This document shows positions 50 to 62,296 of a DNA stretch of 64,000 nucleotides, one piece after another (positions within the stretch are counted from its first letter, which is position 1; every line of letters starts with the position of its first letter). The translations under genes were made by a program, and so were the position numbers. Where the stretch lies: the NCBI RefSeq assembly GCF_018977255.1, contig NW_024704742.1:39124001-39188000 (forward strand), written 5' to 3'. The stretch comes from Callorhinchus milii (Eukaryota). A model generated the notes under the pieces. It worked only from the letters and a program-made list of their open reading frames with translations, was not told the origin of the DNA and ran no database searches.

Positions 50-124
50 GGTAAATGTCGCCCAAACAAGGTAGCACTTACCAAAAAACACATAGAAAAT
101 GCTACTGTTTAGGTCACATGTGCC
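50..124 (-). ncRNA. mir430: Representative pre-miR-430-like hairpin; predicted 3p UAAGUGCUACCUUGUUUGGGCG (59-80)
   Basis: Arms paired by hand; seed AAGUGCU; apical UGUG. Exact mature ends are inferred. Confidence 0.88.
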
Positions 125-192
125 ACTAATCTACGGCAGTTCCCTGAAACCAGACATGGCCTCCTGCAACAAGCTGACTGAAGGTTCGGTCA

Positions 193-268
193 GGTAAACA
201 TTGCCCAAACCAGTAGCACTTAGCAGAAAAATACACAGGAAAATGCTACTGTTTGGGTGATATGTGCC
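193..268 (-). ncRNA. mir430: Representative hairpin; predicted 3p UAAGUGCUACUGGUUUGGGCAA (201-222); usually the first hairpin after a promoter module
   Basis: 5' arm CACCCAAACAGTAGCATTT pairs with AAGTGCTACTGGTTTGGGC. Confidence 0.85.
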
Positions 269-376
269 TTTACTTTCCAACTCCTGGATGGAATCCAATG
301 TGTTCCCCTTCAACAAACCAGCACAGGAGAAAAGGCGTTTCAGTCAGGCAAATGTCATCCAAACTAGATAGCAATC

Positions 377-677
377 CTGCAGAGATGAGGAGGAATGAAG
401 AGCTGACTTACTTCACCATCTTCTCGTCTTCGTCTCAGTTTCACAATGTGATTTCTCCAAATGCCCAGACTTCATCTTTTATATTTCTTCAGCTGAATAT
501 CTCTTCATCCTTTTCAATTCATTTTGGATAGGGTGATGTTGTTGCCCTTGGTTGACTTCAATATAGTTGACCAGTTATAAGTTATGATGTCTTTTGTTTG
601 GGTGATAATGACTCCCTTTGTTACCTGGGGTTCAGGTGACCTTTCTAATATGTTCACTTTCGAGTAAGAACTAAATA
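377..677 (-). promoter_or_regulatory. Repeated putative Pol II promoter module, copy 1
   Basis: Minus strand: TATAAAAG 483-476, Inr-like TCACATT 451-445, donor GTAAGT 411-406, Sox-like AACAAAG 622-616, AGGTCA-cc-TGAACC 642-629. Function is inferred from motif order and orientation toward the hairpins. Confidence 0.7.
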
Positions 678-894
678 TGCCTTTGTGTCTCCAATCTACA
701 ACAGTTCCGTGGGCTCCTCCAACAAAGGATGACTTTGGGAAGGAAGGGTCAGGTAAATGTCGCCCAAACAAGGTAGCACTTATTAAAAAACACATAGAAA
801 ATGCTGCTATTCAGGTGACATTTGCCTTTAATCTACGGCAGATGGCCGGAACCAGACATGGCCATCTACAAGAAACTAAATGAAGATTCGATCG

Positions 895-970
895 GGTAGA
901 CGTTGCCCAAACAATTAGCACTTAGCAGAAACATGCACATGAAAATGCTACTGTTCGGGTGATATGTGCC
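895..970 (-). ncRNA. mir430: Representative hairpin; predicted 3p UAAGUGCUAAUUGUUUGGGCAA (903-924)
   Basis: Same fold; seed intact. Confidence 0.82.
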
Positions 971-1176
971 TTTAGTGTTCAAAACCTTGATGTCCTCCAT
1001 CAAATCATCAGAGACGGAATCCAGATTTGGTCAGGTAAATGTTGCCCAAACAAGGTAGCACTTACCAAAAACGACATAGAAAATGCTGCTGTTTAGGTGA
1101 CATGTCCCTTCAATCTACAGCAATTCCAAATCACCAGTCGTGGCCTCCTACAACAAACTGAACGGAGGTTCCTTCA

Positions 1177-1251
1177 GGTAAACATCGCCAAAACAAGTAG
1201 CACTTACCAGAAAATTACTCAGCAAAATGCTACTGTTTGGGTGATATGTCC
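1177..1251 (-). ncRNA. mir430: Representative hairpin; predicted 3p UAAGUGCUACUUGUUUUGGCGA (1185-1206)
   Basis: Same fold; seed intact. Confidence 0.85.
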
Positions 1252-4677: not shown

Positions 4678-5474
4678 TGCCTTTGTGTCTCCAATCTACA
4701 ACAGTTCCGTGGGCTCCTCCAACAAAGGATGACTTTGGGAAGGAAGGGTCAGGTAAATGTCGCCCAAACAAGGTAGCACTTATTAAAAAACACATAGAAA
4801 ATGCTGTTATTCAGGTGACATTTGCCTTTAATCTATGGCAGATGGCCGGAACCAGACATGGCCATCTACAAGAAACTAAATGAAGATTCGATCGGGTAGA
4901 CGTTGCCCAAACAATTAGCACTTAGCAGAAACATGCACATGAAAATGCTACTGTTCGGGTGATATGTGCCTTTAGTGTTCAAAACCTTGATGTCCTCCAT
5001 CAAATCATCAGAGACGGAATCCAGATTTGGTCAGATAAATGTTGCCCAAACAAGGTAGTACTTACCAAAAACGACATAGAAAATGCTGCTGTTTAGGTGA
5101 CATGTCCCTTCAATCTACAGCAATTCCAAATCACCAGTCGTGGCCTCCTACAACAAACTGAACGGAGGTTCCTTCAGGTAAACATCGCCAAAACAAGTAG
5201 CACTTACCAGAAAATTACTCAGCAAAATGCTACTGTTTGGGTGATATGTCCATTTACTGCACAATACCTTGATGGCATAAGTCGAGGTATTCTCCCCCAA
5301 TCTTTCACAGTAGGAAAGAAGTTTCGGTCAGGTAAATGTCGCCAAAACAAGGTAGCACTTACCAAAAAAGACATAGAAAATGCTACTGTTGAGGTGACAT
5401 GTTCCTTTAATCTACGGCAGTTCCCCGGAACCTGACATGGCTTCCTACAATCACACTGAAGGAAGGTTCGGTCA

Positions 5475-6552: not shown

Positions 6553-9500
6553 TGCCTTTGTGTCTCCAATCTACAACAGTTCCGTGGGCTCCTCCAACAA
6601 AGGATGACTTTGGGAAGGAAGGGTCAGGTAAATGTCGCCCAAACAAGGTAGCACTTTTTAAAAAACACATAGAAAATGCTGTTATTCAGGTGACATTTGC
6701 CTTTAATCTATGGCAGATGGCCGGAACCAGACATGGCCATCTACAAGAAACTAAATGAAGATTCGATCGGGTAGACGTTGCCCAAACAATTAGCACTTAG
6801 CAGAAACATGCACATGAAAATGCTACTGTTCGGGTGATATGTGCCTTTAGTGTTCAAAGCCTTGATGTCCTCCATCAAATCATCAGAGACGGAATCCAGA
6901 TTTGGTCAGGTAAATGTTGCCCAAACAAGGTAGTACTTACCAAAAACGACATAGAAAATGCTGCTGTTTAGGTGACATATCCCTTCAATCTACAGCAATT
7001 CCAAATCACCAGTCGTGGCCTCCTACAACAAACTGAACGGAGGTTCCTTCAGGTAAACATCGCCAAAACAAGTAGCACTTACCAAAAAATTACTCAGCAA
7101 AAGGCTACTGTTTGGGTGATATGTCCATTTATTGCACAATACCTTGATGGCATAAGTCGAGGTATTCTCCCCCAATCTTTCACAGTAGGAAAGAAGTTTC
7201 GGTCAGGTAAATGTCGCCAAAACAAGGTAGCACTTACCAAAAAAGACATAGAAAATGCTACTGTTGAGGTGACATGTGCCTTTAATCTACGGCAGTTCCC
7301 CGGAACCTGACATGGCTTCCTACAACCACACTGAAGGAAGGTTCGGTCAGGAAAACGTTGCCCAAACAGGTAGCACTTATCTAAAAAATACACAGGAAAA
7401 TGCTACTGTTTGGGTTACATGTGCCTCTGCTGTCCTATACCCGGATGGAATCAAATGTGGTCTCCTTCACCTTACCGTCACAGTTGGAAAGAAGGTTTGG
7501 TCAGGTAAATGTCACCCAAACAAGGTAGCACTTACTAAAAAACACATAATAGAAAATGCTCCTGTTCAGGTAACATTTGCCTTTAATCTACAGCAGTTCG
7601 GCGGAAGCAGACATGGCATCCTACAAGAACACTGAATGCAGGTTCGGTCAGGAAAAGGTTGCCCAAACAGATAGCACTTACCAGAAAACAAACAGAAAAT
7701 GCTGCTGTTTAGGTGACATGTCCCTTCAATCTACAGCAATTCCAAATCACCAGTCGTGGCCTCCTACAACAACTTGAATGAAGGTTTGTTTAGGTAAACA
7801 TCGCCAAAACAAGTAGCACTTACCAGAAAATTACTCACCAAAATGCTACTGTTTGGGTGATATGTCCATTTACTGCACAATACCTTGATGGCATAAGTCG
7901 AGGTATTCTCCCCAATTTTTCACAGTAGGAAAGAAGTTTCGGTCAGGTAAATGTCGCCGAAACAAGGTAGCACTTACTAAAAAACACATAGAAAATGCTC
8001 CTGCTGAGGTGACATGTGCTTCAGTGTTCAAAACCTTGATGTCCTCCACCAAATCATCAGAGACGGAATCTAGATTTGTTCAGGTAAATGTCGTCCAAAC
8101 AAGGTAGCACTTACCAAAAAAGACATAGAAAATGCTACTGTTGAGGTGACATGTGCCTTTAATCTACGGCAGTTCCCCGGAACCTGACATGGCTTCCTAC
8201 AACCACACTGAAGGAAGGTTCGGTCAGGAAAACGTTGCCCAAACAGGTAGCACTTATCTGAAAAATACACAGGAAAATGCTACTGTTTGGTTACATGTGC
8301 CTCTGCTGGCCTATACCCGGATGGAATCAAATGTAGTGTCCTCCACCTTACCGTCACAGTTGGAAAGACGTTTCGGTCAGGTAAATGTCGCCCAAACAAG
8401 GTAGCACTTACCAAAATAGACATAGAAAATGCTACTGTTTCGGTCACATGTGCCAATAATCTACGGCAGTTCCCTGAAACCAGACATGGCCTCCTGCAAC
8501 AAACTGAATGAAGGTTCGGTCAGGTAAACATTGCCCAAACCAGTAGCACTTAGCAGAAAAATACACAGGAAAATGCTACTGTTCGGGTGATATGTGCCTT
8601 CAGTGTTCAAAACCTTGATGTCCTCCATCAAATCATCAGAGACGGAATCTAGATTTGTTCAGGTAAATGTCGCCCAAACAAGGTAGCACTTACCAAAAAA
8701 GACATAGAAAATGCTACTGTTGAGGTGACATGTGCCTTTAATTTACGGCCGTTCACCGGATCCTGACATGGCTTCCTACAACCACGCTGAAGGAAGGTTC
8801 GGTCAGGAGAACGTTGCCCAAACAGGTAGCACTTATCTGAAAAATACACAGGAAAAAGCTCCTGTTTGGGTTACATGTGCCTCTGCTGTCCTACACCCGG
8901 ATGGAATCAAATGTGGTCTCCTCCACCTTACCGTCACAGTTGGAAAGAAGGTTCGGTCAGGTAAATGTCGCCCAAATAGGGTAGCACTTACCAAAAAACA
9001 CATAGAAAATGCTCCTGTTCAGGTGACATTTGCCTTTAATCCACAGCAGTTCGCCGGAAGCAGACATGGCCTCCTGCAACAAATTAACTGAAGGTTTGGT
9101 CAGGAAAACGTTGCCCAAACAGTTAGCACTTACCAGAAAACAAACAGAAAATGCTGCTGTTTAGGTGACATGTCCCTTCAATCTACAGCAATTCCAAATC
9201 ACCAGTCGTGGCCTCCTACAACAAACTGAACGGAGGTTCCTTCAGGTAAACATCGCCAAAACAAGTAGCACTTACCAGAAAATTACTCAGCAAAATGCTA
9301 CTGTTTGGGTGATATGTCCATTTACTGCACAATACCTTGATGGCATAAGTCGAGGTATTCTCCCCCAATCTTTCACAGTAGGAAAGAAGTTTCGGTCAGG
9401 TAAATGTCGCCAAAACAAGGTAGCACTTACCAAAAAAGACATAGAAAATGCTACTGTTGAGGTGACATGTTCCTTTAATCTACGGCAGTTCCCCGGAACC

Positions 9501-12501: not shown

Positions 12502-15500
12502 TGCCTTTGTGTCTCCAATCTACAACAGTTCCGTGGGCTCCTCCAACAAAGGATGACTTTGGGAAGGAAGGGTCAGGTAAATGTCGCCCAAACAAGGTAG
12601 CACTTTTTAAAAAACACATAGAAAATGCTGTTATTCAGGTGACATTTGCCTTTAATCTATGGCAGATGGCCGGAACCAGACATGGCCATCTACAAGAAAC
12701 TAAATGAAGATTCGATCGGGTAGACGTTGCCCAAACAATTAGCACTTAGCAGAAACATGCACATGAAAATGCTACTGTTCGGGTGATATGTGCCTTTAGT
12801 GTTCAAAGCCTTGATGTCCTCCATCAAATCATCAGAGACGGAATCCAGATTTGGTCAGGTAAATGTTGCCCAAACAAGGTAGTACTTACCAAAAACGACA
12901 TAGAAAATGCTGCTGTTTAGGTGACATATCCCTTCAATCTACAGCAATTCCAAATCACCAGTCGTGGCCTCCTACAACAAACTGAACGGAGGTTCCTTCA
13001 GGTAAACATCGCCAAAACAAGTAGCACTTACCAGAAAATTACTCAGCAAAAGGCTACTGTTTGGGTGATATGTCCATTTATTGCACAATACCTTGATGGC
13101 ATAAGTCGAGGTATTCTCCCCCAATCTTTCACAGTAGGAAAGAAGTTTCGGTCAGGTAAATGTCGCCAAAACAAGGTAGCACTTACCAAAAAAGACATAG
13201 AAAATGCTACTGTTGAGGTGACATGTGCCTTTAATCTACGGCAGTTCCCCGGAACCTGACATGGCTTCCTACAACCACACTGAAGGAAGGTTCGGTCAGG
13301 AAAACGTTGCCCAAACAGGTAGCACTTATCTAAAAAATACACAGGAAAATGCTACTGTTTGGGTTACATGTGCCTCTGCTGTCCTATACCCGGATGGAAT
13401 CAAATGTGGTCTCCTTCACCTTACCGTCACAGTTGGAAAGAAGGTTTGGTCAGGTAAATGTCACCCAAACAAGGTAGCACTTACTAAAAAACACATAATA
13501 GAAAATGCTCCTGTTCAGGTAACATTTGCCTTTAATCTACAGCAGTTCGGCGGAAGCAGACATGGCATCCTACAAGAACACTGAATGCAGGTTCGGTCAG
13601 GAAAAGGTTGCCCAAACAGTTAGCACTTACCAGAAAACAAACAGAAAATGCTGCTGTTTAGGTGACATGTCCCTTCAATCCACAGCAATTCCAAATCACC
13701 AGTCGTGGCCTCCTACAACAACCTGAATGAAGGTTCGTTTAGGTAAACATCGCCAAAACAAGTAGCACTTACCAGAAAATTACTCACCAAAATGCTACTG
13801 TTTGGGTGATATGTCCATTTACTGCACAATACCTTGATGGCATAAGTCGAGGTATTCTCCCCCAATTTTTCACAGTAGGAAAGAAGTTTCGGTCAGGTAA
13901 ATGTCGCCGAAACAAGGTAGCACTTACTAAAAAACACATAGAAAATGCTCCTGCTGAGGTGACATGTGCTTCAGTGTTCAAAACCTTGATGTCCTCCACC
14001 AAATCATCAGAGACGGAATCTAGATTTGTTCAGGTAAATGTCGTCCAAACAAGGTAGCACTTACCAAAAAAGACATAGAAAATGCTACTGTTGAGGTGAC
14101 ATGTGCCTTTAATCTACGGCAGTTCCCCGGAACCTGACATGGCTTCCTACAACCACACTGAAGGAAGGTTCGGTCAGGAAAACGTTGCCCAAACAGGTAG
14201 CACTTATCTGAAAAATACACAGGAAAATGCTACTGTTTGGTTACATGTGCCTCTGCTGGCCTATACCCGGATGGAATCAAATGTAGTGTCCTCCACCTTA
14301 CCGTCACAGTTGGAAAGACGTTTCGGTCAGGTAAATGTCGCCCAAACAAGGTAGCACTTACCAAAATAGACATAGAAAATGCTACTGTTTCGGTCACATG
14401 TGCCAATAATCTACGGCAGTTCCCTGAAACCAGACATGGCCTCCTGCAACAAACTGAATGAAGGTTCGGTCAGGTAAACATTGCCCAAACCAGTAGCACT
14501 TAGCAGAAAAATACACAGGAAAATGCTACTGTTCGGGTGATATGTGCCTTCAGTGTTCAAAACCTTGATGTCCTCCATCAAATCATCAGAGACGGAATCT
14601 AGATTTGTTCAGGTAAATGTCGCCCAAACAAGGTAGCACTTACCAAAAAAGACATAGAAAATGCTACTGTTGAGGTGACATGTGCCTTTAATTTACGGCC
14701 GTTCACCGGATCCTGACATGGCTTCCTACAACCACGCTGAAGGAAGGTTCGGTCAGGAGAACGTTGCCCAAACAGGTAGCACTTATCTGAAAAATACACA
14801 GGAAAAAGCTCCTGTTTGGGTTACATGTGCCTCTGCTGTCCTACACCCGGATGGAATCAAATGTGGTCTCCTCCACCTTACCGTCACAGTTGGAAAGAAG
14901 GTTCGGTCAGGTAAATGTCGCCCAAATAGGGTAGCACTTACCAAAAAACACATAGAAAATGCTCCTGTTCAGGTGACATTTGCCTTTAATCCACAGCAGT
15001 TCGCCGGAAGCAGACATGGCCTCCTGCAACAAATTAACTGAAGGTTTGGTCAGGAAAACGTTGCCCAAACAGTTAGCACTTACCAGAAAACAAACAGAAA
15101 ATGCTGCTGTTTAGGTGACATGTCCCTTCAATCTACAGCAATTACAAATCACCAGTCGTCGCCTCCTACAACAAACTGAACGGAGGTTCCTTCAGGTAAA
15201 CATCACCAAAACAAGTAGCACTTACCAGAAAATTACTCAGCAAAATGCTACTGTTTGGGTGATATGTCCATTTACTGCACAATACCTTGATGGCATAAGT
15301 CGAGGTATTCTCCTCCAATCTTTCACAGTAGGAAAGAAGTTTCGGTCAGGTAAATGTCGCCAAAACAAGGTAGCACTTATTAAAAACACATAGAAAATGC
15401 TCCTGCTGAGGTGACATGTGCTTTAGTGTTCAAAACCTTGATGTCCTCCACCAAATCATCAGAGACGGAATCTAGATTTGTTCAGGTAAATGTCGCCCAA

Positions 15501-17990: not shown

Positions 17991-20900
17991 TGCCTTTGTG
18001 TCTCCAATCTACAACAGTTCCGTGGGCTCCTCCAACAAAGGATGACTTTGGGAAGGAAGGGTCAGGTAAATGTCGCCCAAACAAGGTAGCACTTATTAAA
18101 AACACATAGAAAATGCTGTTATTCAGGTGACATTTGCCTTTAATCTATGGCAGATGGCCGGAACCAGACATGGCCATCTACAAGAAACTAAATGAAGATT
18201 CGATCGGGTAGACGTTGCCCAAACAATTAGCACTTAGCAGAAACATGCACATGAAAATGCTACTGTTCGGGTGATATGTGCCTTTAGTGTTCAAAGCCTT
18301 GATGTCCTCCATCAAATCATCAGAGACGGAATCCAGATTTGGTCAGGTAAATGTTGCCCAAACAAGGTAGTACTTACCAAAAACGACATAGAAAATGCTG
18401 CTGTTTAGGTGACATATCCCTTCAATCTACAGCAATTCCAAATCACCAGTCGTGGCCTCCTACAACAAACTGAACGGAGGTTCCTTCAGGTAAACATCGC
18501 CAAAACAAGTAGCACTTACCAGAAAATTACTCAGCAAAAGGCTACTGTTTGGGTGATATGTCCATTTATTGCACAATACCTTGATGGCATAAGTCGAGGT
18601 ATTCTCCCCCAATCTTTCACAGTAGGAAAGAAGTTTCGGTCAGGTAAATGTCGCCAAAACAAGGTAGCACTTACCAAAAAAGACATAGAAAATGCTACTG
18701 TTGAGGTGACATGTGCCTTTAATCTACGGCAGTTCCCCGGAACCTGACATGGCTTCCTACAACCACACTGAAGGAAGGTTCGGTCAGGAAAACGTTGCCC
18801 AAACAGGTAGCACTTATCTAAAAAATACACAGGAAAATGCTACTGTTTGGGTTACATGTGCCTCTGCTGTCCTATACCCGGATGGAATCAAATGTGGTCT
18901 CCTTCACCTTACCGTCACAGTTGGAAAGAAGGTTTGGTCAGGTAAATGTCACCCAAACAAGGTAGCACTTACTAAAAAACACATAATAGAAAATGCTCCT
19001 GTTCAGGTAACATTTGCCTTTAATCTACAGCAGTTCGGCGGAAGCAGACATGGCATCCTACAAGAACACTGAATGCAGGTTCGGTCAGGAAAAGGTTGCC
19101 CAAACAGATAGCACTTACCAGAAAACAAACAGAAAATGCTGCTGTTTAGGTGACATGTCCCTTCAATCTACAGCAATTCCAAATCACCAGTCGTGGCCTC
19201 CTACAACAACTTGAATGAAGGTTTGTTTAGGTAAACATCGCCAAAACAAGTAGCACTTACCAGAAAATTACTCACCAAAATGCTACTGTTTGGGTGATAT
19301 GTCCATTTACTGCACAATACCTTGATGGCATAAGTCGAGGTATTCTCCCCCAATTTTTCACAGTAGGAAAGAAGTTTCGGTCAGGTAAATGTCGCCGAAA
19401 CAAGGTAGCACTTACTAAAAAACACATAGAAAATGCTCCTGCTGAGGTGACATGTGCTTCAGTGTTCAAAACCTTGATGTCCTCCACCAAATCATCAGAG
19501 ACGGAATCTAGATTTGTTCAGGTAAATGTCGTCCAAACAAGGTAGCACTTACCAAAAAAGACATAGAAAATGCTACTGTTGAGGTGACATGTGCCTTTAA
19601 TCTACGGCAGTTCCCCGGAACCTGACATGGCTTCCTACAACCACACTGAAGGAAGGTTCGGTCAGGAAAACGTTGCCCAAACAGGTAGCACTTATCTGAA
19701 AAATACACAGGAAAATGCTACTGTTTGGGTTACATGTGCCTCTGCTGGCCTATACCCGGATGGAATCAAATGTAGTGTCCTCCACCTTACCGTCACAGTT
19801 GGAAAGACGGTTTCGGTCACATGTGCCAATAATCTACGGCAGTTCCCTGAAACCAGACATGGCCTCCTGCAACAAACTGAATGAAGGTTCGGTCAGGTAA
19901 ACATTGCCCAAACCAGTAGCACTTAGCAGAAAAATACACAGGAAAATGCTACTGTTCGGGTGATATGTGCCTTCAGTGTTCAAAACCTTGATGTCCTCCA
20001 TCAAATCATCAGAGACGGAATCTAGATTTGTTCAGGTAAATGTCGCCCAAACAAGGTAGCACTTACCAAAAAAGACATAGAAAATGCTACTGTTGAGGTG
20101 ACATGTGCCTTTAATTTACGGCCGTTCACCGGATCCTGACATGGCTTCCTACAACCACGCTGAAGGAAGGTTCGGTCAGGAGAACGTTGCCCAAACAGGT
20201 AGCACTTATCTGAAAAATACACAGGAAAAAGCTCCTGTTTGGGTTACATGTGCCTCTGCTGTCCTACACCCGGATGGAATCAAATGTGGTCTCCTCCACC
20301 TTACCGTCACAGTTGGAAAGAAGGTTCGGTCAGGTAAATGTCGCCCAAATAGGGTAGCACTTACCAAAAAAACACATAGAAAATGCTCCTGTTCAGGTGA
20401 CATTTGCCTTTAATCCACAGCAGTTCGCCGGAAGCAGACATGGCCTCCTGCAACAAATTAACTGAAGGTTTGGTCAGGAAAACGTTGCCCAAACAGTTAG
20501 CACTTACCAGAAAACAAACAGAAAATGCTGCTGTTTAGGTGACATGTCCCTTCAATCTACAGCAATTACAAATCACCAGTCGTCGCCTCCTACAACAAAC
20601 TGAACGGAGGTTCCTTCAGGTAAACATCACCAAAACAAGTAGCACTTACCAGAAAATTACTCAGCAAAATGCTACTGTTTGGGTGATATGTCCATTTACT
20701 GCACAATACCTTGATGGCATAAGTCGAGGTATTCTCCTCCAATCTTTCACAGTAGGAAAGAAGTTTCGGTCAGGTAAATGTCGCCAAAACAAGGTAGCAC
20801 TTATTAAAAAACACATAGAAAATGCTCCTGCTGAGGTGACATGTGCTTTAGTGTTCAAAACCTTGCCCAAACAGGTAGCACTTATCTGAAAAATACACAG

Positions 20901-24600: not shown

Positions 24601-24642
24601 GCGTTTCAGTCAGGCAAATGTCATCCAAACTAGATAGCAATC

Positions 24643-24943
24643 CTGCAGAGATGAAGAGGAATGAAGAGCTGACTTACTTCACCATCTTCTCGTCTTCGTC
24701 TCAGTTTCACAATGTGATTTCTCCAAATGCCCAGACTTCATCTTTTATATTTCTTCAGCTGAATATCTCTTCATCCTTTTCAATTCATTTTGGATAGGGT
24801 GATGTTGTTGCCCTTGGTTGACTTCAATATAGTTGACCAGTTATAAGTTATGATGTCTTTTGTTTGGGTGATAATGACTCCCTTTGTTACCTGGGGTTCA
24901 GGTGACCTTTCTAATATGTTCACTTTCGAGTAAGAACTAAATA
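24643..24943 (-). promoter_or_regulatory. Promoter module copy 10
   Basis: TATA 24742-24749. Confidence 0.7.
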
Positions 24944-26937
24944 TGCCTTTGTGTCTCCAATCTACAACAGTTCCGTGGGCTCCTCCAACAAAGGATGACT
25001 TTGGGAAGGAAGGGTCAGGTAAATGTCGCCCAAACAAGGTAGCACTTATTAAAAAACACATAGAAAATGCTGTTATTCAGGTGACATTTGCCTTTAATCT
25101 ACGGCAGATGGCCGGAACCAGACATGGCCATCTACAAGAAACTAAATGAAGATTCGATCGGGTAGACGTTGCCCAAACAATTAGCACTTAGCAGAAACAT
25201 GCACATGAAAATGCTACTGTTCGGGTGATATGTGCCTTTAGTGTTCAAAACCTTGATGTCCTCCATCAAATCATCAGAGACGGAATCCAGATTTGGTCAG
25301 GTAAATGTTGCCCAAACAAGGTAGCACTTACCAAAAACGACACAGAAAATGCTGCTGTTTAGGTGACATGTCCCTTCAATCTACAGCAATTCCAAATCAC
25401 CAGTCGTGGCCTCCTACAACAAACTGAACGGAGGTTCCTTCAGGTAAACATCGCCAAAACAAGTAGCACTTACCAGAAAATTACTCAGCAAAATGCTACT
25501 GTTTGGGTGATATGTCCATTTACTGCACAATACCTTGATGGCATAAGTCGAGGTATTCTCCCCCAATCTTTCACAGTAGGAAAGAAGTTTCGGTCAGGTA
25601 AATGTCGCCAAAACAAGGTAGCACTTATTAAAAAACACATAGAAAATGCTCCTGCTGAGGTGACATGTGCTTTAGTGTTCAAAACCTTGATGTCCTCCAC
25701 CAAATCATCAGAGACGGAATCTAGATTTGTTCAGGTAAATGTCGCCCAAACAAGGTAGCACTTACCAAAAAACACATAGAAAATGCTACTGTTGAGGTGA
25801 CATGTGCCTTTAATCTACGGCAGTTTCCCGGAACCTGACATGGCTTCCTACAACTACACTGAAGGAAGGTTCGGTCAGGAAAACGTTGCCCAAACAGGTA
25901 GCACTTATCTGAAAAATACACAGGAAAATGCTACTGTTTGGGTTACATGTGCCTCTGCTGTCCTATACCCGGATGGAATCAAATGTGGTCTCCTTCACCT
26001 TACCGTCACAGTTGGAAAGAAGGTTTGGTCAGGTAAATGTCGCCCAAACAAGGTAGCACTTACCAAAAAACACATAATAGAAAATGCTCCTGTTCAGTTG
26101 ACATTTGCCTTTAATCTACAGCAGTTCGCCGGAAGCAGACATGGCCTCCTGCAACAAATTAACTGAAGGTTTGGTCAGGAAAACGTTGCCCAAACAGTTA
26201 GCACTTACCAGAAAACAAACAGAAAATGCTGCTGTTTAGGTGACATGTCCCTTCAATCTACAGCAATTCCAAATCACCAGTCGTGGCCTCCTACAACAAA
26301 CTGAACGGAGGTTCCTTCAGGTAAACATCGCCAAAACAAGTAGCACTTACCAGAAAATTACTCAGCAAAATGCTACTGTTTGGGTGATATGTCCATTTAC
26401 TGTACAATACCTTGATGGCATAAGTCGAGGTATTCTCCTCCAATCTTTCACAGTAGGAAAGAAGTTTCGGTCTGGTAAATGTCGCCAAAACAGGGTAGCA
26501 CTTACTAAAAAACACATAGAAAATGCTCCTGCTGAGGTGACATGTGCTTTAGTGTTCAAAACCTTGATGTCCTCCACCAAATCATCAGAGACGGAATCTA
26601 GATTTGTTCAGGTAAATGTCGCCCAAACAAGGTAGCACTTACCAAAAAACACATAGAAAATGCTACTGTTTATGTCACATGTGCCACTAATCTACGGCAG
26701 TTCCCTGAAACCAGACATGGCCTCCTGCAACAAGCTGAATGAAGGTTCGGTCAGGTAAACATTGCCCAAACCAGTAGCACTTAGCAGAAAAATACACAGG
26801 AAAATGCTACTGTTTGGGGGATATGTGCCTTTACTTTCCAACTCCTGGATGGAATCCAATGTGTTCCCCTTCAACAAACCAGCACAGGAGAAAAGGCGTT
26901 TCAGTCAGGCAAATGTCATCCAAACTAGATAGCAATC

Positions 26938-27238
26938 CTGCAGAGATGAAGAGGAATGAAGAGCTGACTTACTTCACCATCTTCTCGTCTTCGTCTCAGT
27001 TTCACAATGTGATTTCTCCAAATGCCCAGACTTCATCTTTTATATTTCTTCAGCTGAATATCTCTTCATCCTTTTCAATTCATTTTGGATAGGGTGATGT
27101 TGTTGCCCTTGGTTGACTTCAATATAGTTGACCAGTTATAAGTTATGATGTCTTTTGTTTGGGTGATAATGACTCCCTTTGTTACCTGGGGTTCAGGTGA
27201 CCTTTCTAATATGTTCACTTTCGAGTAAGAACTAAATA
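26938..27238 (-). promoter_or_regulatory. Promoter module copy 11
   Basis: TATA 27037-27044. Confidence 0.7.
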
Positions 27239-29232
27239 TGCCTTTGTGTCTCCAATCTACAACAGTTCCGTGGGCTCCTCCAACAAAGGATGACTTTGGG
27301 AAGGAAGGGTCAGGTAAATGTCGCCCAAACAAGGTAGCACTTATTAAAAAACACATAGAAAATGCTGTTATTCAGGTGACATTTGCCTTTAATCTACGGC
27401 AGATGGCCGGAACCAGACATGGCCATCTACAAGAAACTAAATGAAGATTCGATCGGGTAGACGTTGCCCAAACAATTAGCACTTAGCAGAAACATGCACA
27501 TGAAAATGCTACTGTTCGGGTGATATGTGCCTTTAGTGTTCAAAACCTTGATGTCCTCCATCAAATCATCAGAGACGGAATCCAGATTTGGTCAGGTAAA
27601 TGTTGCCCAAACAAGGTAGCACTTACCAAAAACGACACAGAAAATGCTGCTGTTTAGGTGACATGTCCCTTCAATCTACAGCAATTCCAAATCACCAGTC
27701 GTGGCCTCCTACAACAAACTGAACGGAGGTTCCTTCAGGTAAACATCGCCAAAACAAGTAGCACTTACCAGAAAATTACTCAGCAAAATGCTACTGTTTG
27801 GGTGATATGTCCATTTACTGCACAATACCTTGATGGCATAAGTCGAGGTATTCTCCCCCAATCTTTCACAGTAGGAAAGAAGTTTCGGTCAGGTAAATGT
27901 CGCCAAAACAAGGTAGCACTTATTAAAAAACACATAGAAAATGCTCCTGCTGAGGTGACATGTGCTTTAGTGTTCAAAACCTTGATGTCCTCCACCAAAT
28001 CATCAGAGACGGAATCTAGATTTGTTCAGGTAAATGTCGCCCAAACAAGGTAGCACTTACCAAAAAACACATAGAAAATGCTACTGTTGAGGTGACATGT
28101 GCCTTTAATCTACGGCAGTTTCCCGGAACCTGACATGGCTTCCTACAACTACACTGAAGGAAGGTTCGGTCAGGAAAACGTTGCCCAAACAGGTAGCACT
28201 TATCTGAAAAATACACAGGAAAATGCTACTGTTTGGGTTACATGTGCCTCTGCTGTCCTATACCCGGATGGAATCAAATGTGGTCTCCTTCACCTTACCG
28301 TCACAGTTGGAAAGAAGGTTTGGTCAGGTAAATGTCGCCCAAACAAGGTAGCACTTACCAAAAAACACATAATAGAAAATGCTCCTGTTCAGTTGACATT
28401 TGCCTTTAATCTACAGCAGTTCGCCGGAAGCAGACATGGCCTCCTGCAACAAATTAACTGAAGGTTTGGTCAGGAAAACGTTGCCCAAACAGTTAGCACT
28501 TACCAGAAAACAAACAGAAAATGCTGCTGTTTAGGTGACATGTCCCTTCAATCTACAGCAATTCCAAATCACCAGTCGTGGCCTCCTACAACAAACTGAA
28601 CGGAGGTTCCTTCAGGTAAACATCGCCAAAACAAGTAGCACTTACCAGAAAATTACTCAGCAAAATGCTACTGTTTGGGTGATATGTCCATTTACTGTAC
28701 AATACCTTGATGGCATAAGTCGAGGTATTCTCCTCCAATCTTTCACAGTAGGAAAGAAGTTTCGGTCTGGTAAATGTCGCCAAAACAGGGTAGCACTTAC
28801 TAAAAAACACATAGAAAATGCTCCTGCTGAGGTGACATGTGCTTTAGTGTTCAAAACCTTGATGTCCTCCACCAAATCATCAGAGACGGAATCTAGATTT
28901 GTTCAGGTAAATGTCGCCCAAACAAGGTAGCACTTACCAAAAAACACATAGAAAATGCTACTGTTTATGTCACATGTGCCACTAATCTACGGCAGTTCCC
29001 TGAAACCAGACATGGCCTCCTGCAACAAGCTGAATGAAGGTTCGGTCAGGTAAACATTGCCCAAACCAGTAGCACTTAGCAGAAAAATACACAGGAAAAT
29101 GCTACTGTTTGGGGGATATGTGCCTTTACTTTCCAACTCCTGGATGGAATCCAATGTGTTCCCCTTCAACAAACCAGCACAGGAGAAAAGGCGTTTCAGT
29201 CAGGCAAATGTCATCCAAACTAGATAGCAATC

Positions 29233-29533
29233 CTGCAGAGATGAAGAGGAATGAAGAGCTGACTTACTTCACCATCTTCTCGTCTTCGTCTCAGTTTCAC
29301 AATGTGATTTCTCCAAATGCCCAGACTTCATCTTTTATATTTCTTCAGCTGAATATCTCTTCATCCTTTTCAATTCATTTTGGATAGGGTGATGTTGTTG
29401 CCCTTGGTTGACTTCAATATAGTTGACCAGTTATAAGTTATGATGTCTTTTGTTTGGGTGATAATGACTCCCTTTGTTACCTGGGGTTCAGGTGACCTTT
29501 CTAATATGTTCACTTTCGAGTAAGAACTAAATA
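29233..29533 (-). promoter_or_regulatory. Promoter module copy 12
   Basis: TATA 29332-29339. Confidence 0.7.
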
Positions 29534-55951: not shown

Positions 55952-58394
55952 TGCCTTTGTGTCTCCAATCTACAACAGTTCCGTGGGCTCCTCCAACAAA
56001 GGATGACTTTGGGAAGGAAGGGTCAGGTAAATGTCGCCCAAACAAGGTAGCACTTATTAAAAAACACATAGAAAATGCTGTTATTCAGGTGACATTTGCC
56101 TTTAATCTACGGCAGATGGCCGGAACCAGACATGGCCATCTACAAGAAACTAAATGAAGATTCGATCGGGTAGACGTTGCCCAAACAATTAGCACTTAGC
56201 AGAAACATGCACATGAAAATGCTACTGTTCGGGTGATATGTGCCTTTAGTGTTCAAAACCTTGATGTCCTCCATCAAATCATCAGAGACGGAATCCAGAT
56301 TTGGTCAGGTAAATGTTGCCCAAACAAGGTAGCACTTACCAAAAACGACACAGAAAATGCTGCTGTTTAGGTGACATGTCCCTTCAATCTACAGCAATTC
56401 CAAATCACCAGTCGTGGCCTCCTACAACAAACTGAACGGAGGTTCCTTCAGGTAAACATCGCCAAAACAAGTAGCACTTACCAGAAAATTACTCAGCAAA
56501 ATGCTACTGTTTGGGTGATATGTCCATTTACTGCACAATACCTTGATGGCATAAGTCGAGGTATTCTCCCCCAATCTTTCACAGTAGGAAAGAAGTTTCG
56601 GTCAGGTAAATGTCGCCAAAACAAGGTAGCACTTATTAAAAAACACATAGAAAATGCTCCTGCTGAGGTGACATGTGCTTTAGTGTTCAAAACCTTGATG
56701 TCCTCCACCAAATCATCAGAGACGGAATCTAGATTTGTTCAGGTAAATGTCGCCCAAACAAGGTAGCACTTACCAAAAAACACATAGAAAATGCTACTGT
56801 TGAGGTGACATGTGCCTTTAATCTACGGCAGTTTCCCGGAACCTGACATGGCTTCCTACAACCACACTGAAGGAAGGTTCGGTCAGGAAAACGTTGCCCA
56901 AACAGGTAGCACTTATCTGAAAAATACACAGGAAAATGCTACTGTTTGGGTTACATGTGCCTCTGCTGTCCTATACCCGGATGGAATCAAATGTGGTCTC
57001 CTTCACCTTACCGTCACAGTTGGAAAGAAGGTTTGGTCAGGTAAATGTCGCCCAAACAAGGTAGCACTTACCAAAAAACACATAGAAAATGCTACTGTTG
57101 AGGTGACATGTGCCTTTAATCTACGGCAGTTTCCCGGAACCTGACATGGCTTCCTACAACCACACTGAAGGAAGGTTCGGTCAGGAAAACGTTGCCCAAA
57201 CAGGTAGCACTTATCTGAAAAATACACAGGAAAATGCTACTGTTTGGGTTACATGTGCCTCTGCTGTCCTATACCCGGATGGAATCAAATGTGGTCTCCT
57301 TCACCTTACCGTCACAGTTGGAAAGAAGGTTTGTTCAGGTAAATGTCGCCCAAACAAGGTAGCACTTACCAAAAAACACATAGAAAATGCTACTGTTTAG
57401 GTCACATGTGCCACTAATCTACGGCAGTTCCCCGGAACCTGACATGGCTTCCTACAACCACACTGAAGGAAGGTTCGGTCAGGAAAACGTTGCCCAAACA
57501 GTTAGCACTTACCGGAAAACAAACAGAAAATGCTGCTGTTTAGGTGACATGTCCCTTCAATCTACAGCAATTCCAAATCACCAGTCGTGGCCTCCTACAA
57601 CAAACTGAATGGAGGTTCCTTCAGGTAAACATCGCCAAAACAAGTAGCACTTACCAGAAAATTACTCAGCAAAATGCTATTGTTTGGGTGATATGTCCAT
57701 TTACTGCACAATACCTTGATGGCATAAGTCGAGGTATTCTCCCCCAATCTTTCACAGTAGGAAAGAAGTTTCGGTCAGGTAAGCATCGCCAAAACAAGTT
57801 GCACTTACCAGAAAATTACTCAGCAAAATGCCACTGTTTGGGTGATATGTCCATTTACTGCACAATACCTTGATGGCATAAGTCAAGGTATTCTCCCCCA
57901 ATCTTTCACAGTAGGAAAGAAGTTTCGGTCAGGTAAATGTCGCCAAAACAAGGTAGCACTTATTAAAAAACACATAGAAAATGCTCCTGCTGAGGTGACA
58001 TGTGCTTCAGTGTTCAAAACCTTGATGTCCTCCACCAAATCATCAGAGACGGAATCCAGATTTGTTCAGGTAAATGTCGCCCAAACAAAGTAGCACTTGC
58101 CAAAAAACACATAGAAAATGCTACTGTTTAGGTCACATGTGCCACTAATCTACGGCAGTTCCCTGAAACCAGACATGGCCTCCTGCAACAAGCTGAATGA
58201 AGGTTCGGTCAGGTAAACATTGCCCAAACCAGTAGCACTTAGCAGAAAAATACACAGAAAATGCTACTGTTTGGGTGATATGTGCCTTTACTTTCCAACT
58301 CCTGGATGGAATCCAATGTGTTCCCCTTCAACAAACCAGCACAGGAGAAAAGGTGTTTCAGTCAGGCAAATGTCATCCAAACTAGATAGCAATC

Positions 58395-58695
58395 CTGCAG
58401 AGATGAGGAGGAATGAAGAGCTGACTTACTTTACCATCTTCTCGTCTTCGTCTCAGTTTCACAATGTGATTTCTCCAAATGCCCAGACTTCATCTTTTAT
58501 ATTTCTTCAGCTGAATATCTCTTCATCCTTTTCAATTCATTTTGGATAGGGTGATGTTGTTGCCCTTGGTTGACTTCAATATAGTTGACCAGTTATAAGT
58601 TATGATGTCTTTTGTTTGGGTGATAATGACTCCCTTTGTTACCTGGGGTTCAGGTGACCTTTCTAATATGTTCACTTTCGAGTAAGAACTAAATA
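58395..58695 (-). promoter_or_regulatory. Promoter module copy 24
   Basis: TATA 58494-58501. Confidence 0.7.
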
Positions 58696-60687
58696 TGCCT
58701 TTGTGTCTCCAATCTACAACAGTTCCGTGGGCTCCTCCAACAAAGGATGACTTTGGGAAGGAAGGGTCAGGTAAATGTCGCCCAAACAAGGTAGCACTTA
58801 TTAAAAAACACATAGAAAATGCTGCTATTCAGGAGACATTTGCCTTTAATCTACGGCAGATGGCCGGAACCAGACATGGCCATCTACAAGAAACTAAATG
58901 AAGATTCGATCGGGTAGACGTTACCCAAACAATTAGCACTGAGCAGAAACATGCACATGAAAATGCTACTGTTCGGGTGATATGTGCCTTTAGTGTTCAA
59001 AACCTTGATATCCTCCATCAAATCATCAGACGGAATCCAGATTTGGTCAGGTAAATGTTGCCCAAACAAGGTAGCACTTACCAAAAACGACACAGAAAAT
59101 GCTGCTGTTTAGGTGACATGTCCCTTCAATCTACAGCAATTCCAAATCACCAGTCGTGGCCTCCTACAACAAACTGAACGGAGGTTCCTTCAGGTAAACA
59201 TCGCCAAAACAAGTAGCACTTACCAGAAAATTACTCAGCAAAATGCTACTGTTTGGGTGATATGTCCATTTACTGCACAATACCTTGATGGCATAAGTCG
59301 AGGTATTCTCCCCCAATCTTTCACAGTAGGAAAGAAGTTTCGGTCAGGTAAATGTCGCCAAAACAAGGTAGCACTTATTAAAAAACACATAGAAAATGCT
59401 CCTGCTGAGGTGACATGTGCTTTAGTGTTCAAAACCTTGATGTCCTCCACCAAATCATCAGAGACGGAATCTAGATTTGTTCAGGTAAATGTCGCCCAAA
59501 CAAGGTAGCACTTACCAAAAAACACATAGAAAATGCTACTGTTGAGGTGACATGTGCCTTTAATCTACGGCAGTTTCCCGGAACCTGACATGGCTTCCTA
59601 CAACCACACTGAAGGAAGGTTCGGTCAGGAAAACGTTGCCCAAACAGGTAGCACTTATCTGAAAAATACACAGGAAAATGCTACTGTTTGGGTTACATGT
59701 GCCTCTGCTGTCCTATACCCGGATGGAATCAAATGTGGTCTCCTTCACCTTACCGTCACAGTTGGAAAGAAGGTTTGGTCAGGTAAATGTCGCCCAAACA
59801 AGGTAGCACTTACCAAAAAATACATAATAGAAAATGCTCCTGTTCAGTTGACATTTGCCTTTAATCTACAGCAGTTCGCCGGAAGCAGACATGGCCTCCT
59901 GCAACAAATTAACTGAAGGTTTGGTCAGGAAAACGTTGCCCAAACAGTTAGCACTTACCAGAAAACAAACAGAAAATGCTGCTGTTTAGGTGACATGTCC
60001 CTTCAATCTACAGCAATTCCAAATCACCAGTCGTGGCCTCCTACAACAAACTGAACGGAGGTTCCTTCAGGTAAACATCGCCAAAACAAGTAGCACTTAC
60101 CAGAAAATTACTCAGCAAAATGCTACTGTTTGGGTGATATGTCCATTTACTGTACAATACCTTGATGGCATAAGTCGAGGTATTCTCCTCCAATCTTTCA
60201 CAGTAGGAAAGAAGTTTCGGTCTGGTAAATGTCGCCAAAACAGGGTAGCACTTACTAAAAAACACATAGAAAATGCTCCTGCTGAGGTGACATGTGCTTT
60301 AGTGTTCAAAACCTTGATGTCCTCCACCAAATCATCAGAGACGGAATCTAGATTTGTTCAGGTAAATGTCGCCCAAACAAGGTAGCACTTACCAAAAAAC
60401 ACATAGAAAATGCTACTGTTTATGTCACATGTGCCACTAATCTACGGCAGTTCCCTGAAACCAGACATGGCCTCCTGCAACAAGCTGAATGAAGGTTCGG
60501 TCAGGTAAACATTGCCCAAACCAGTAGCACTTAGCAGAAAAATACACAGGAAAATGCTACTGTTTGGGGGATATGTGCCTTTACTTTCCAACTCCTGGAT
60601 GGAATCCAATGTGTTCCCCTTCAACAAACCAGCACAGGAGAAAAGGCGTTTCAGTCAGGCAAATGTCATCCAAACTAGATAGCAATC

Positions 60688-60988
60688 CTGCAGAGATGAA
60701 GAGGAATGAAGAGCTGACTTACTTCACCATCTTCTCGTCTTCGTCTCAGTTTCACAATGTGATTTCTCCAAATGCCCAGACTTCATCTTTTATATTTCTT
60801 CAGCTGAATATCTCTTCATCCTTTTCAATTCATTTTGGATAGGGTGATGTTGTTGCCCTTGGTTGACTTCAATATAGTTGACCAGTTATAAGTTATGATG
60901 TCTTTTGTTTGGGTGATAATGACTCCCTTTGTTACCTGGGGTTCAGGTGACCTTTCTAATATGTTCACTTTCGAGTAAGAACTAAATA
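60688..60988 (-). promoter_or_regulatory. Promoter module copy 25
   Basis: TATA 60787-60794. Confidence 0.7.
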
Positions 60989-62220
60989 TGCCTTTGTGTC
61001 TCCAATCTACAACAGTTCCGTGGGCTCCTCCAACAAAGGATGACTTTGGGAAGGAAGGGTCAGGTAAATGTCGCCCAAACAAGGTAGCACTTATTAAAAA
61101 ACACATAGAAAATGCTGTTATTCAGGTGACATTTGCCTTTAATCTACGGCAGATGGCCGGAACCAGACATGGCCATCTACAAGAAACTAAATGAAGATTC
61201 GATCGGGTAGACGTTGCCCAAACAATTAGCACTTAGCAGAAACATGCACATGAAAATGCTACTGTTCGGGTGATATGTGCCTTTAGTGTTCAAAACCTTG
61301 ATGTCCTCCACCAAATCATCAGAGACGGAATCTAGATTTGTTCAGGTAAATGTCGCCCAAACAGGTAGCACTTATCTGAAAAATACACAGGAAAATGCTT
61401 CTGTTTGGGTCACATGTGCCTCTGCTGTCCTATACCCGGATGGAATCAAATGTGGTCTCCTTCACCTTACCGTCACAGTTGGAAAGAAGGTTTGGTCAGG
61501 TAAATGTCGCCCAAACAAGGTAGCACTTACCAAAAAACACATAATAGAAAATGCTCCTGTTCAGTTGACATTTGCCTTTAATCTACAGCTGTTCGCCGGA
61601 AGCAGACATGGCCTCCTGCAACAAATTAACTGAAGGTTTGGTCAGGAAAACGTTGCCCAAACAGTTAGCACTTACCAGAAAACAAACAGAAAATGCTGCT
61701 GTTTAGGTGACATGTCCCTTCAATCTACAGCAATTCCAAATCACCAGTCGTGGCCTCCTACAACAAACTGAACGGAGGTTCCTTCAGGTAAACATCGCCA
61801 AAACAAGTAGCACTTACCAGAAAATTACTCAGCAAAATGCTACTGTTTGGGTGATATGTCCATTTACTGTACAATACCTTGATGGCATAAGTCGAGGTAT
61901 TCTCCTCCAATCTTTCACAGTAGGAAAGAAGTTTCGGTCTGGTAAATGTCGCCAAAACAGGGTAGCACTTACTAAAAAACACATAGAAAATGCTCCTGCT
62001 GAGGTGACATGTGCTTTAGTGTTCAAAACCTTGATGTCCTCCACCAAATCATCAGAGACGGAATCTAGATTTGTTCAGGTAAATGTCGCCCAAACAAGGT
62101 AGCACTTGCCAAAAAACACATAGAAAATGCTACTGTTTAGGTCACATGTGCCACTAATCTACGGCAGTTCCCTGAAACCAGACATGGCCTCCTGCAACAA
62201 GCTGAATGAAGGTTCGGTCA

Positions 62221-62296
62221 GGTAAACATTGCCCAAACCAGTAGCACTTAGCAGAAAAATACACAGGAAAATACTACTGTTTGGGTGATATTTGCC
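62221..62296 (-). ncRNA. mir430: Rightmost (5'-most) hairpin of the cluster; predicted 3p UAAGUGCUACUGGUUUGGGCAA (62229-62250)
   Basis: Last monomer before the terminal promoter module; it has a few private substitutions in the 5' arm. Confidence 0.82.

Follow-up and report, generated by a model that had tools for sequence, protein, structure and literature searches.

The 64,000-nucleotide stretch analyzed here (the window; Callorhinchus milii assembly GCF_018977255.1, contig NW_024704742.1, positions 39,124,001 to 39,188,000) is a portion of a ~92-kb tandem array of ~480 miR-430-family hairpin genes in the elephant fish, a cartilaginous fish. The array is very probably the miR-430-family locus of this holocephalan, composed of head-to-tail Pol II-type transcription units read from the minus strand, whose products would, by analogy, serve in the clearance of maternal mRNA.

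Extent and block architecture of the array

Monomers were located with nhmmer using a profile HMM made from the window's own hairpins, and were thus not chosen by seed. Over the whole locus, this search identified 480 minus-strand monomers at 39,094,205-39,186,301 (~92 kb), giving the multi-copy, one-strand tandem cluster that is characteristic of the miR-430 family. The plus strand yielded five weak matches; save for one inverted remnant, the array is co-oriented. The share of the window (positions 1-62301, minus strand; nhmmer, seed counts and block listing) is 357 monomers in 26 blocks, so that the ~355 hairpins counted in a first-pass annotation of this DNA were an accurate estimate. The same annotation placed the start of the array at position 50, which is not so, as the array runs off the left end of the window, past which its main part goes on for ~21 kb with a small outlier beyond. 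Nor is it a plain satellite-like monomer repeat: monomer spacing is mostly 137-155 nt, but the window also contains 25 gaps of ~560 nt, and the blocks are set apart by a 456-nt non-hairpin spacer. The array occupies 0.009% of the genome (92 kb of 991.5 Mb), matching the figure of 'about 0.01%' given for miR-430 clusters in PMC10417697.

In total, the array comprises ~33 blocks of 9-25 hairpins, each preceded by the 456-nt spacer. A genome search recovered 32 full-length spacer copies at 99-100% identity and one partial copy, all within the locus. The spacer carries a TATAAAAG box, and the TATA core is found in 33 copies (32 exact, one with a 1-nt deletion), 26 of them inside the window on the minus strand, at about positions 486, 2347, 4486, 6361, 10433, 12310, 15921, 17799, 21440, 24752, 27047, 29342, 31636, 33649, 35944, 38391, 40404, 42417, 45162, 48620, 50721, 53465, 55760, 58504, 60797 and 62514. 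Based on the TATA box and on its position ahead of each hairpin group, the spacer is a putative pri-miR-430 promoter unit. No AATAAA or ATTAAA is present in the spacer consensus. The copy at 290-745 (minus strand) has its TATAAAAG box at 483-476; beyond this box, on the minus strand, lies the remnant of the 3' arm of a dead hairpin. The copy heading the array in the direction of transcription (62318-62705, minus strand) covers spacer positions 69-456 at 96% identity, with its TATA core intact at ~62514; an older, diverged partial copy (62703-62883, minus strand; 72% identity, spacer positions 71-265) ends just before the TATA position.

Two consecutive 2295-nt blocks (24752-29341, minus strand), each consisting of a spacer and 13 hairpins in the pattern EAGBFADACBIHC, are 100% identical, and other 2295-nt blocks are 99.5-99.7% identical. 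The far end of the array contains SINE insertions, an inverted copy, and a 25-N assembly gap with a 750-bp duplicate (99.2%) on each side, because of which the copy number at that end is uncertain. It is conceivable, though unlikely, that the identity of the locus is right and its size and block order are partly a product of assembly, with near-identical 2.3-kb units over-expanded or collapsed, as suggested by the adjacent identical blocks, by the gap between duplicates, and by the precedent of the zebrafish locus, which was underestimated ~40-fold before long reads (10.1101/2021.08.09.455629). Against this, the variation in block length and hairpin order is structured, unlike the outcome of a simple mis-join, and the 33 spacer copies all fall in one locus, with none found on unplaced contigs in the genome search. 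Outside the array, in the flank for which the first-pass annotation named a DeuSINE, the window contains a dispersed SINE-like repeat (63634-63927) with 43 other matches at 72-84% identity on many contigs of the genome; an insertion of the same element is found in the old far end of the array.

Family assignment and the separate miR-302/367 locus

All Rfam matches in the window are to RF01413 (miR-430) on the minus strand, with no other family represented, in agreement with the initial assignment to a minus-strand miR-430-family locus. Matches with E<=0.01 were obtained for 136 of the 357 monomers: seven exceed the gathering score of 47.3 (48-56.1 bits), and a further 129 lie under it at 36-43 bits. 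Monomers under the threshold score 30-46 bits against a model that was built on teleost sequences. The best-scoring pre-miR-430 hairpin (7507-7577, minus strand; 56.1 bits, E 6.2e-08, full model 1-70) has identical copies at 13456-13526 and 18944-19014. The non-teleost vertebrate suggested in the first pass is the right kind of host, because the COX1 of the genome's mitochondrion (519 aa) matches, letter for letter, the record named Callorhinchus milii (Tax=Callorhinchus).

A separate miR-302/367 cluster is present on the same contig at 33.66 Mb (plus strand), 5.4 Mb from the array, and consists of a mir-367-like hairpin with a miR-302-like hairpin on either side (Rfam RF00668 and RF00735). 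It lies antisense within a minus-strand LARP7-like gene that encodes La and xRRM (RRM_3) domains. The array and this LARP7-intronic cluster share a 3p-arm AAGUGC seed and membership in Rfam clan CL00096, but occupy distinct loci in the Callorhinchus genome, and the array hairpins obtain their best scores with the miR-430 model, not the mir-302 model. The possibility that the array is itself the miR-302/367 cluster was rejected, given its 5.4 Mb distance from the La and RRM_3 gene and the lack of any mir-367 match in the window by Rfam search.

A related and rather improbable alternative is that the array is a genuine, processed cluster that is used like amniote miR-302 or miR-290/371, in pluripotent, germline or stem cells, with no clearance burst at genome activation. 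The need for a very rapid burst may be less pressing in chimaeras, whose embryos grow at a slow pace from large, yolky eggs, and the retention of canonical miR-302/367 shows that a single genome puts AAGUGC miRNAs to more than one use. The same retention also cuts the other way, since Callorhinchus already has a dedicated locus for a miR-302-type role, and the extreme copy number and repeated TATA units of the array resemble the zebrafish and Xenopus loci that fire at genome activation.

Hairpin structure and Microprocessor-type features

Canonical Microprocessor substrates have a stem of ~33-35 bp (~11 bp lower and ~22 bp upper) with an apical loop, and auxiliary motifs that include a downstream CNNC and an apical UGU/GUG. 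The array hairpins are predicted to fold into such substrates, with minus-strand stem-loops of ~33 bp that are more stable than shuffled sequence. For 82 distinct 76-nt hairpins, compared with dinucleotide shuffles, the mean z-score was -3.38, with z<-2 in 68, and 75 folded as one unbranched hairpin with 22 bp or more. The mean MFE was -23.1 kcal/mol for the minus-strand RNA versus -18.9 for the plus, with the minus strand more stable in 73 of 82. These folds bear out the ~75-nt minus-strand stem-loops described in the first-pass annotation, which had itself proposed folding as a check.

RNAalifold, run blind on a MAFFT alignment, did not recover the hairpin, and a consensus was therefore mapped by hand from per-sequence folds, giving a single helix of 27 pairs (alignment columns 8-38 and 57-90). 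Applied to 84 distinct copies, this consensus retains pairing in 89.6% of cells, versus 29-47% with the partner column slid. One pair is compensatory (GC in 59 copies, AU in 21). Covariation is otherwise thin, with both-sided change in only 4 of 29 pairs and most measures no better than shuffles, as expected for hairpins that are recent paralogues.

Among 153 distinct seed-bearing monomers, which are related and so do not count as independent observations, 127 have a CNNC beginning at +17 to +19 from the assumed 3p end, and 130 carry UGU or GUG within the apical 16 nt. The CNNC is retained even though the spacers surrounding it vary the most.

Seed, candidate mature sequence and diversity profile

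In the window, the minus strand contains AAGTGC 346 times and the plus strand not once; among the 357 minus-strand monomers, AAGTGCT is found 342 times, in every case in the 3' arm of the predicted stem-loop; and TAAGTGCT occurs 333 times, versus 2.5 expected from shuffles. The AAGUGC seed is thus intact in 346 of 357 monomers, of which 333 read UAAGUGCU. Taking the 3p arm as the probable mature strand, the seed AAGUGCU occupies nt 2-8 of the product, as in the miR-430 family. Seed mutations are found in 11 of 357 monomers in the window and 13 of 123 upstream of it. Examples on the minus strand include an AAGUAC monomer at 5032-5114, detected by nhmmer without AAGTGC, and ten further monomers also lacking AAGTGC are located at 6907, 10978, 12856, 16610, 18344, 45570, 46003, 47890, 53873 and 58912.

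The commonest hairpin carrying the commonest 3p 22-mer (57336-57419, minus strand; copy counts, alignment row and fold) is present 15 times in its 84-nt form. Its candidate mature 3p sequence, UAAGUGCUACCUUGUUUGGGCG (57347-57368, minus strand), is a 22-mer found 87 times in the window. The first nine letters are those of the 3p consensus of the Rfam miR-430 model, and comparison by eye with X. tropicalis miR-427, as printed in PMC11829755, gives 17 of 22 matching positions, including the last eight, UUUGGGCG. The earlier description of a miR-430-like 5' half joined to a miR-427-like 3' end stands on these two matches.

Nucleotide diversity (pi) was computed on 171 distinct HMM-defined monomers, without selection on the seed, and was 0.039 in the seed, 0.181 in 3p nt 9-22, 0.150 in the 5p arm, 0.257 in the loop and 0.43-0.45 in the inter-hairpin spacers. 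The seed is thus ~4-fold less diverse than the arms and ~11-fold less than the spacers, a selection-like profile that agrees with the initial impression of a nearly invariant seed in a diverging background. Seed 'conservation' by raw copy count is largely recent amplification, because many blocks are 99.5-100% identical; selection speaks only through the comparison across distinct monomers, which are themselves non-independent. That the array is instead a satellite seeded by a miR-430 hairpin, grown by unequal crossing-over and now largely silent or unprocessed, with its uniform seed a mark of recent amplification, would fit the block identity, the lost seeds, and the SINE insertions and inverted copy at the far end, but is very improbable given 171 distinct monomers graded exactly like working miRNA genes, the retained pairing, the CNNC at a fixed distance within an otherwise variable spacer, and an intact TATA core in every one of the 33 spacers.

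Proposed mechanism

In the preferred reading, as a miR-430-family locus acting in maternal clearance, each unit would begin with the TATA-bearing spacer, followed by its run of 9-25 pre-miRNA hairpins at ~140-155 nt spacing. The long primary transcripts would be cut by Drosha/DGCR8 at each hairpin, these having a lower stem of ~11 bp, an upper stem of ~22 bp, an apical UGU/GUG, and a CNNC ~17-19 nt downstream. Dicer would then free the ~22-nt 3p-arm miRNA, whose seed is AAGUGCU. If the array acts like zebrafish miR-430 and Xenopus miR-427, its many copies may allow a very large miRNA output within a few cell cycles of genome activation, and the miRNA would then deadenylate and clear maternal mRNAs bearing GCACUU sites. 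The embryonic timing and function attributed to the array are likewise modeled on these systems.

Evolutionary implications

Fish and frog embryos transcribe the miR-430/427 arrays among their very first genes and use them to clear maternal RNA, and the zebrafish array organizes a transcription body. The chimaera lineage split from the bony vertebrates early in the history of jawed vertebrates, and a well-assembled chimaera copy provides an outgroup to all bony vertebrates. The Callorhinchus copy shows the same design, with hundreds of hairpins on one strand and a TATA-bearing unit that recurs along the array. A bolder reading, less likely than not, is that the promoter-dense mega-array, with a TATA promoter before every short run of AAGUGCU hairpins, goes back to the common ancestor of all jawed vertebrates and was not a teleost or frog invention; that its locus was separate from the LARP7-intronic miR-302/367 on the same chromosome, and perhaps its local duplicate; and that the chimaera array would nucleate a transcription body at genome activation, as in zebrafish. 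The coexistence of the array and canonical miR-302/367 on one chromosome bears on whether miR-302 and miR-430/427 have a common origin or came to their seed by convergence, which is posed as an open question in PMC7564603.

Comparison with known miR-430 and miR-427 loci

The array is known in kind and species, because tandem miR-430 repeats in C. milii were reported by Jimenez-Ruiz et al. 2023 (PMC10417697), with the assembly IMCB_Cmil_1.0 in a supplementary table. These repeats are the same kind of object from the same species or genus, and the first-pass suggestion that such an array may be unannotated is accordingly not supported as stated. The C. milii sequences are grouped there outside variants a, b and c, in agreement with the first-pass view that they are not the a/b/c triplet. 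In the available portion of that report, Table 1 has no C. milii row and the Table S1 row gives no chromosome or locus count, so the 480 monomers, ~92-kb extent, 33 TATA spacers, 9-25 hairpins per unit and miR-302/367 linkage are not visible in it. The present analysis leaves the overall picture unchanged and fills in the anatomy of a locus already in print, namely how many copies it has, how they are arranged in blocks, the TATA spacer between blocks and the linkage to miR-302/367.

The zebrafish chromosome 4 miR-430 locus, as described by Hadzhiev et al. (10.1101/2021.08.09.455629), contains 313 TATA-box promoters and 655 triplets in ~577 kb, with two to three triplets (6-9 hairpins) per 650-bp promoter. 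Both loci consist of one-strand tandem hairpins with the AAGUGCU seed in TATA-headed units, at very high promoter and hairpin density and with a 3p-arm miRNA, the promoters and the mature strand being putative on the Callorhinchus side. By contrast, the Callorhinchus array has 33 spacers and 480 hairpins in ~92 kb; each 456-nt spacer serves 9-25 hairpins, packed one every 140-155 nt, and the block pattern has no a/b/c triplet order. According to PMC10417697, the Danio promoter sequence itself is not found outside Danio. In Xenopus, 171 tandem miR-427 precursors are located at the distal end of Chr03 in X. tropicalis, and 33 copies in both orientations span 55 kb in X. laevis (PMC10569791). The Callorhinchus array resembles these loci in its high-copy tandem organization, its seed and the miR-427 match of its commonest 22-mer, and differs from them in its 480 copies, which are in one orientation save for the one inverted remnant.

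Hairpin array and family assignment

Tandem repeats fill the window from position 1 to 62,400, with periods of about 142, 154, 282, 298 and 434 nt (Tandem Repeats Finder), and GC stays level near 0.42 until the final 2 kb, where it falls to 0.38. The motif AAGTGC occurs 346 times on the minus strand and 0 times on the plus strand, its extended form AAGTGCT occurs 342 times on the minus strand, and TAAGTGCT occurs 333 times on the same strand, against 2.5 expected from dinucleotide-preserving shuffles. A search with a monomer HMM, built from 84 distinct hairpins of the window itself, identifies 357 minus-strand monomers, 11 of which carry a point mutation in the seed. The first-pass annotation, which had read the window as a miR-430-family cluster of about 355 minus-strand hairpins, was thus accurate in its count, and its observation is confirmed and its interpretation supported overall.

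The family assignment was studied by Rfam search. Seven minus-strand matches in the window, every one of them to the miR-430 model RF01413, lie above the gathering score of 47.3, with scores of 56.1 or 48 bits. Permissive filters return 136 matches in the window at E<=0.01, which are likewise minus-strand RF01413 matches without exception, and none of the other families of the Rfam clan scores best at any array hairpin. The window contains 27 distinct candidate mature 22-mers, the commonest of which, UAAGUGCUACCUUGUUUGGGCG, occurs 87 times. The start of this 22-mer resembles the 3p consensus of the RF01413 model, and in a by-eye comparison with the X. tropicalis miR-427 sequence given in PMC11829755, 17 of the 22 positions match, including the last eight, which bears out the earlier description of a miR-430-like start joined to a miR-427-like end.

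Hairpin folding and Microprocessor geometry

On folding, the minus-strand monomers form stable hairpins, as the first-pass annotation had proposed. Each of the 346 stretches of 84 nt centred on a seed folds, and their MFE averages -26.0 kcal/mol. Among 82 distinct 76-nt hairpins, the minus-strand RNA is more stable than the plus-strand RNA in 73 (means of -23.1 vs -18.9) and 75 fold into a single hairpin of 22 or more pairs with no branches; the folding z-score, calculated from 50 dinucleotide shuffles of each, has a mean of -3.38 and is below -2 in 68.

RNAalifold, applied blind to a MAFFT alignment of 84 distinct hairpins, returned only a local stem of 4 pairs instead of the hairpin, as the 3' arm contains an indel that throws the arms out of register. 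The consensus hairpin was mapped from the folds of the individual sequences and then counted on the alignment, giving standard pairs in 89.6% of 2,435 cells, compared with 29-47% after shifting the partner 1-3 columns. A single lower-stem pair shows a clean switch, being G-C in 59 copies and A-U in 21; covariation elsewhere in the stem is weak, as expected for array monomers, which are young paralogues. The hairpin geometry is of the Microprocessor substrate type, the lower stem measuring about 11 bp, the upper about 22 bp and the loop about 14 nt. Both CNNC and an apical UGU or GUG are Microprocessor motifs; among 153 distinct seed-bearing monomers, a CNNC starts 17-19 nt past the assumed 3p end in 127, and an apical UGU or GUG is present in 130.

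Sequence diversity of the monomers

Because entire blocks of the array are 99.5-100% identical, raw copy counts inflate apparent conservation. By contrast, differences in diversity within the monomer are informative, because the genealogy is common to every site within a monomer. The diversity profile was calculated from 171 distinct monomers of the whole locus, defined by the HMM rather than by the seed. Nucleotide diversity (pi) is 0.039 at 3p nt 2-8 (the seed), 0.069 at 3p nt 1, 0.150 in the 5p arm, 0.181 at 3p nt 9-22, 0.257 in the loop, and 0.43-0.45 in the inter-hairpin spacers. Judged from these sequences, the profile is that expected for working miRNA genes, with the 3p arm as the predicted guide strand. 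By analogy with known systems, the 3p-arm products, of 22-23 nt, would start at UAAGUGCU. The processing, strand choice, timing and function of the array are likewise proposed by analogy, from the zebrafish and Xenopus loci.

Block structure and the TATA-bearing spacer

The array is more than a simple satellite of monomers: its hairpins are arranged in blocks split by 456-nt spacers. The window contains 25 gaps of about 560 nt, each with one such non-hairpin spacer. Every spacer copy in the genome lies within the array locus; 32 are full-length (99-100% identity) and one is partial (96%). In minus-strand orientation, the consensus of the spacer contains a TATAAAAG box at position 267, followed by a remnant of a hairpin 3' arm, and contains neither AATAAA nor ATTAAA. 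The TATA core is intact in 33 of 33 spacer copies (26 of them inside the window), 32 being exact and one having a 1-nt deletion. Downstream of each spacer, in the direction of transcription, come 9-25 hairpins whose order recurs between blocks, and the modal block has 2,295 nt and 13 hairpins. The leading spacer of the array (window 62318-62705, minus strand) is located at the high-coordinate end, which lies upstream for transcripts of the minus strand, and is preceded by an older partial spacer copy (window 62703-62883, minus strand).

The position of the spacer and its TATA box suggest that it is a putative promoter, from which the minus-strand start site would fall about 25-35 nt downstream of TATAAAAG. 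Transcription from the TATA box by Pol III was considered and rejected by inference, because the runs of five or six T present in most hairpin loops would terminate Pol III at the first hairpin.

Two further features of the spacer sequence were observed. Just past the putative start site, at about 333-375 of the consensus, there is a GTAAGT resembling a 5' splice site (e.g. in the copy at 290-745, minus strand), with a polypyrimidine tract and CAG 30 nt beyond it. This splice-site-like stretch overlaps the dead-hairpin remnant and is shorter than a vertebrate intron can be. A 68-nt piece of the array spacer, 99% identical, occurs alone on another contig (G000:C11:3239661-3239728), where it covers the TATA box plus about 24 nt beyond it and directly adjoins a tRNA-like SINE head. 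No hairpins are found near this piece, which may be a fragment moved by rearrangement or by SINE-associated transduction.

Extent and flanks of the locus

The window corresponds to 39,124,001-39,188,000 of contig C1 in an assembly of 991.5 Mb, and the extent of the array was surveyed over a 264-kb region that reaches 150 kb upstream of the window and 50 kb downstream of it. The main array reaches 39,103,441 on C1, outside the window. Past it lies an 8-kb stretch in which a 25-N assembly gap (C1:39,095,282-39,095,306, or 1282-1306 of the interval L011), at the array's old distal end, is flanked by SINE-like insertions and one inverted degenerate monomer, and then a final 0.7-kb group of degenerate monomers ending at C1 39,094,205. 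The whole locus thus contains 480 minus-strand monomers over about 92 kb, with the seed intact in 456, and no further monomers are present in the rest of the 264-kb region. A 750-bp segment is repeated on both sides of the 8-kb interruption with 99.2% identity, and may be a real duplication or a product of assembly. SINE-like copies are inserted in the decayed array end at about 1000-1280 and 2250-2600 of L011, and a dispersed SINE-like element at window 63634-63927 has 43 other scored matches in the genome, at 72-84% identity.

The flanks (120 kb upstream and 50 kb downstream) contain 113 ORFs of at least 100 aa, among which Pfam detects only three reverse-transcriptase fragments, and 164 ORFs of 80-99 aa. 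By the Pfam scan of ORFs of at least 100 aa, the array flanks are gene-poor.

A genome-wide search for the hairpin pattern gives 582 matches, 567 of them inside the 264-kb region and the other 15 outside. One of the latter, at C1:17,012,279, has no match to the hairpin HMM and is probably due to chance. The whole-genome Rfam search scored 66 of about 247,000 candidates, and therefore leaves room for other small loci. Elsewhere in the assembly, C1762 is a mitochondrial contig with COX1 (519 residues, translation table 2). Its product is identical at every residue to cytochrome c oxidase subunit I of Callorhinchus milii (UniRef entry Tax=Callorhinchus, n=9), which assigns the genome to Callorhinchus at the level of the genus, the resolution that COX1 by itself affords. 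Several COX1-like stretches rich in TGA codons occur on the unplaced contigs G000:C800 and G000:C203, where they probably represent either mitochondrial DNA inserted in the nuclear genome or redundant mitochondrial pieces of the assembly.

The miR-302/367 cluster

On the minus strand of the same contig, Pfam identified a gene (C1:33,647,231-33,675,014) whose domains are La and RRM_3 (xRRM). Between its La and RRM_3 exons, on the plus strand, Rfam gives a mir-302 match of 48 bits, under the gathering score of 55, with a mir-367 match of 33 bits, under the gathering score of 54, and a second AAGUGC hairpin, each within 1.2 kb of it. The resulting canonical cluster of miR-302, mir-367 and a miR-302-like hairpin lies within G000:C1:33660712-33663778 (interval L041, plus strand), with hairpins at L041:1501-1567, 2036-2102 and about 2630-2710. 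In tetrapods, miR-302/367 is antisense in an intron of LARP7 (PMC7564603). The arrangement here is the tetrapod one, and together with the domains it suggests that the host gene is LARP7-like. The cluster and the miR-430-type array are 5.4 Mb apart on one chromosome-scale contig. Callorhinchus is a holocephalan cartilaginous fish. On the boldest reading, both the promoter-dense layout of the array and its standing apart from miR-302/367 may go back to the jawed-vertebrate ancestor.

Comparison with known loci

The array is a textbook kind of locus, and its discovery in C. milii is already in print (Jimenez-Ruiz et al. 2023, PMC10417697). That study places the C. milii miR-430 sequences outside the groups of variants a, b and c, and its supplementary table lists the species under assembly IMCB_Cmil_1.0; C. 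milii has no row in Table 1, and its row in Table S1 carries no chromosome or locus number. A full-text literature search gave no match to the three commonest 22-mers of the window, no description of the locus was found in literature naming miR-430 together with elephant shark, and the 2014 elephant shark genome paper and one supplement contain none of 'miR-430', 'miR-427', 'miR-302' or 'AAGUGCU'. The copy number, block structure and miR-302/367 linkage may thus be new details.

The zebrafish miR-430 locus is described as having a 650-bp TATA-box promoter ahead of every two or three hairpin triplets, with 313 promoters and 655 triplets in about 577 kb (10.1101/2021.08.09.455629), and miR-427 precursors are reported to number 171 in X. 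tropicalis and 33 over 55 kb in X. laevis (PMC10569791). Compared with the loci as described in these reports, the spacer-then-hairpins layout of Callorhinchus, with the spacer as a putative promoter, follows the promoter-then-triplets logic of zebrafish, and its array, with 480 hairpins in 33 units over 92 kb, falls between the zebrafish and Xenopus loci and packs its hairpins more densely.
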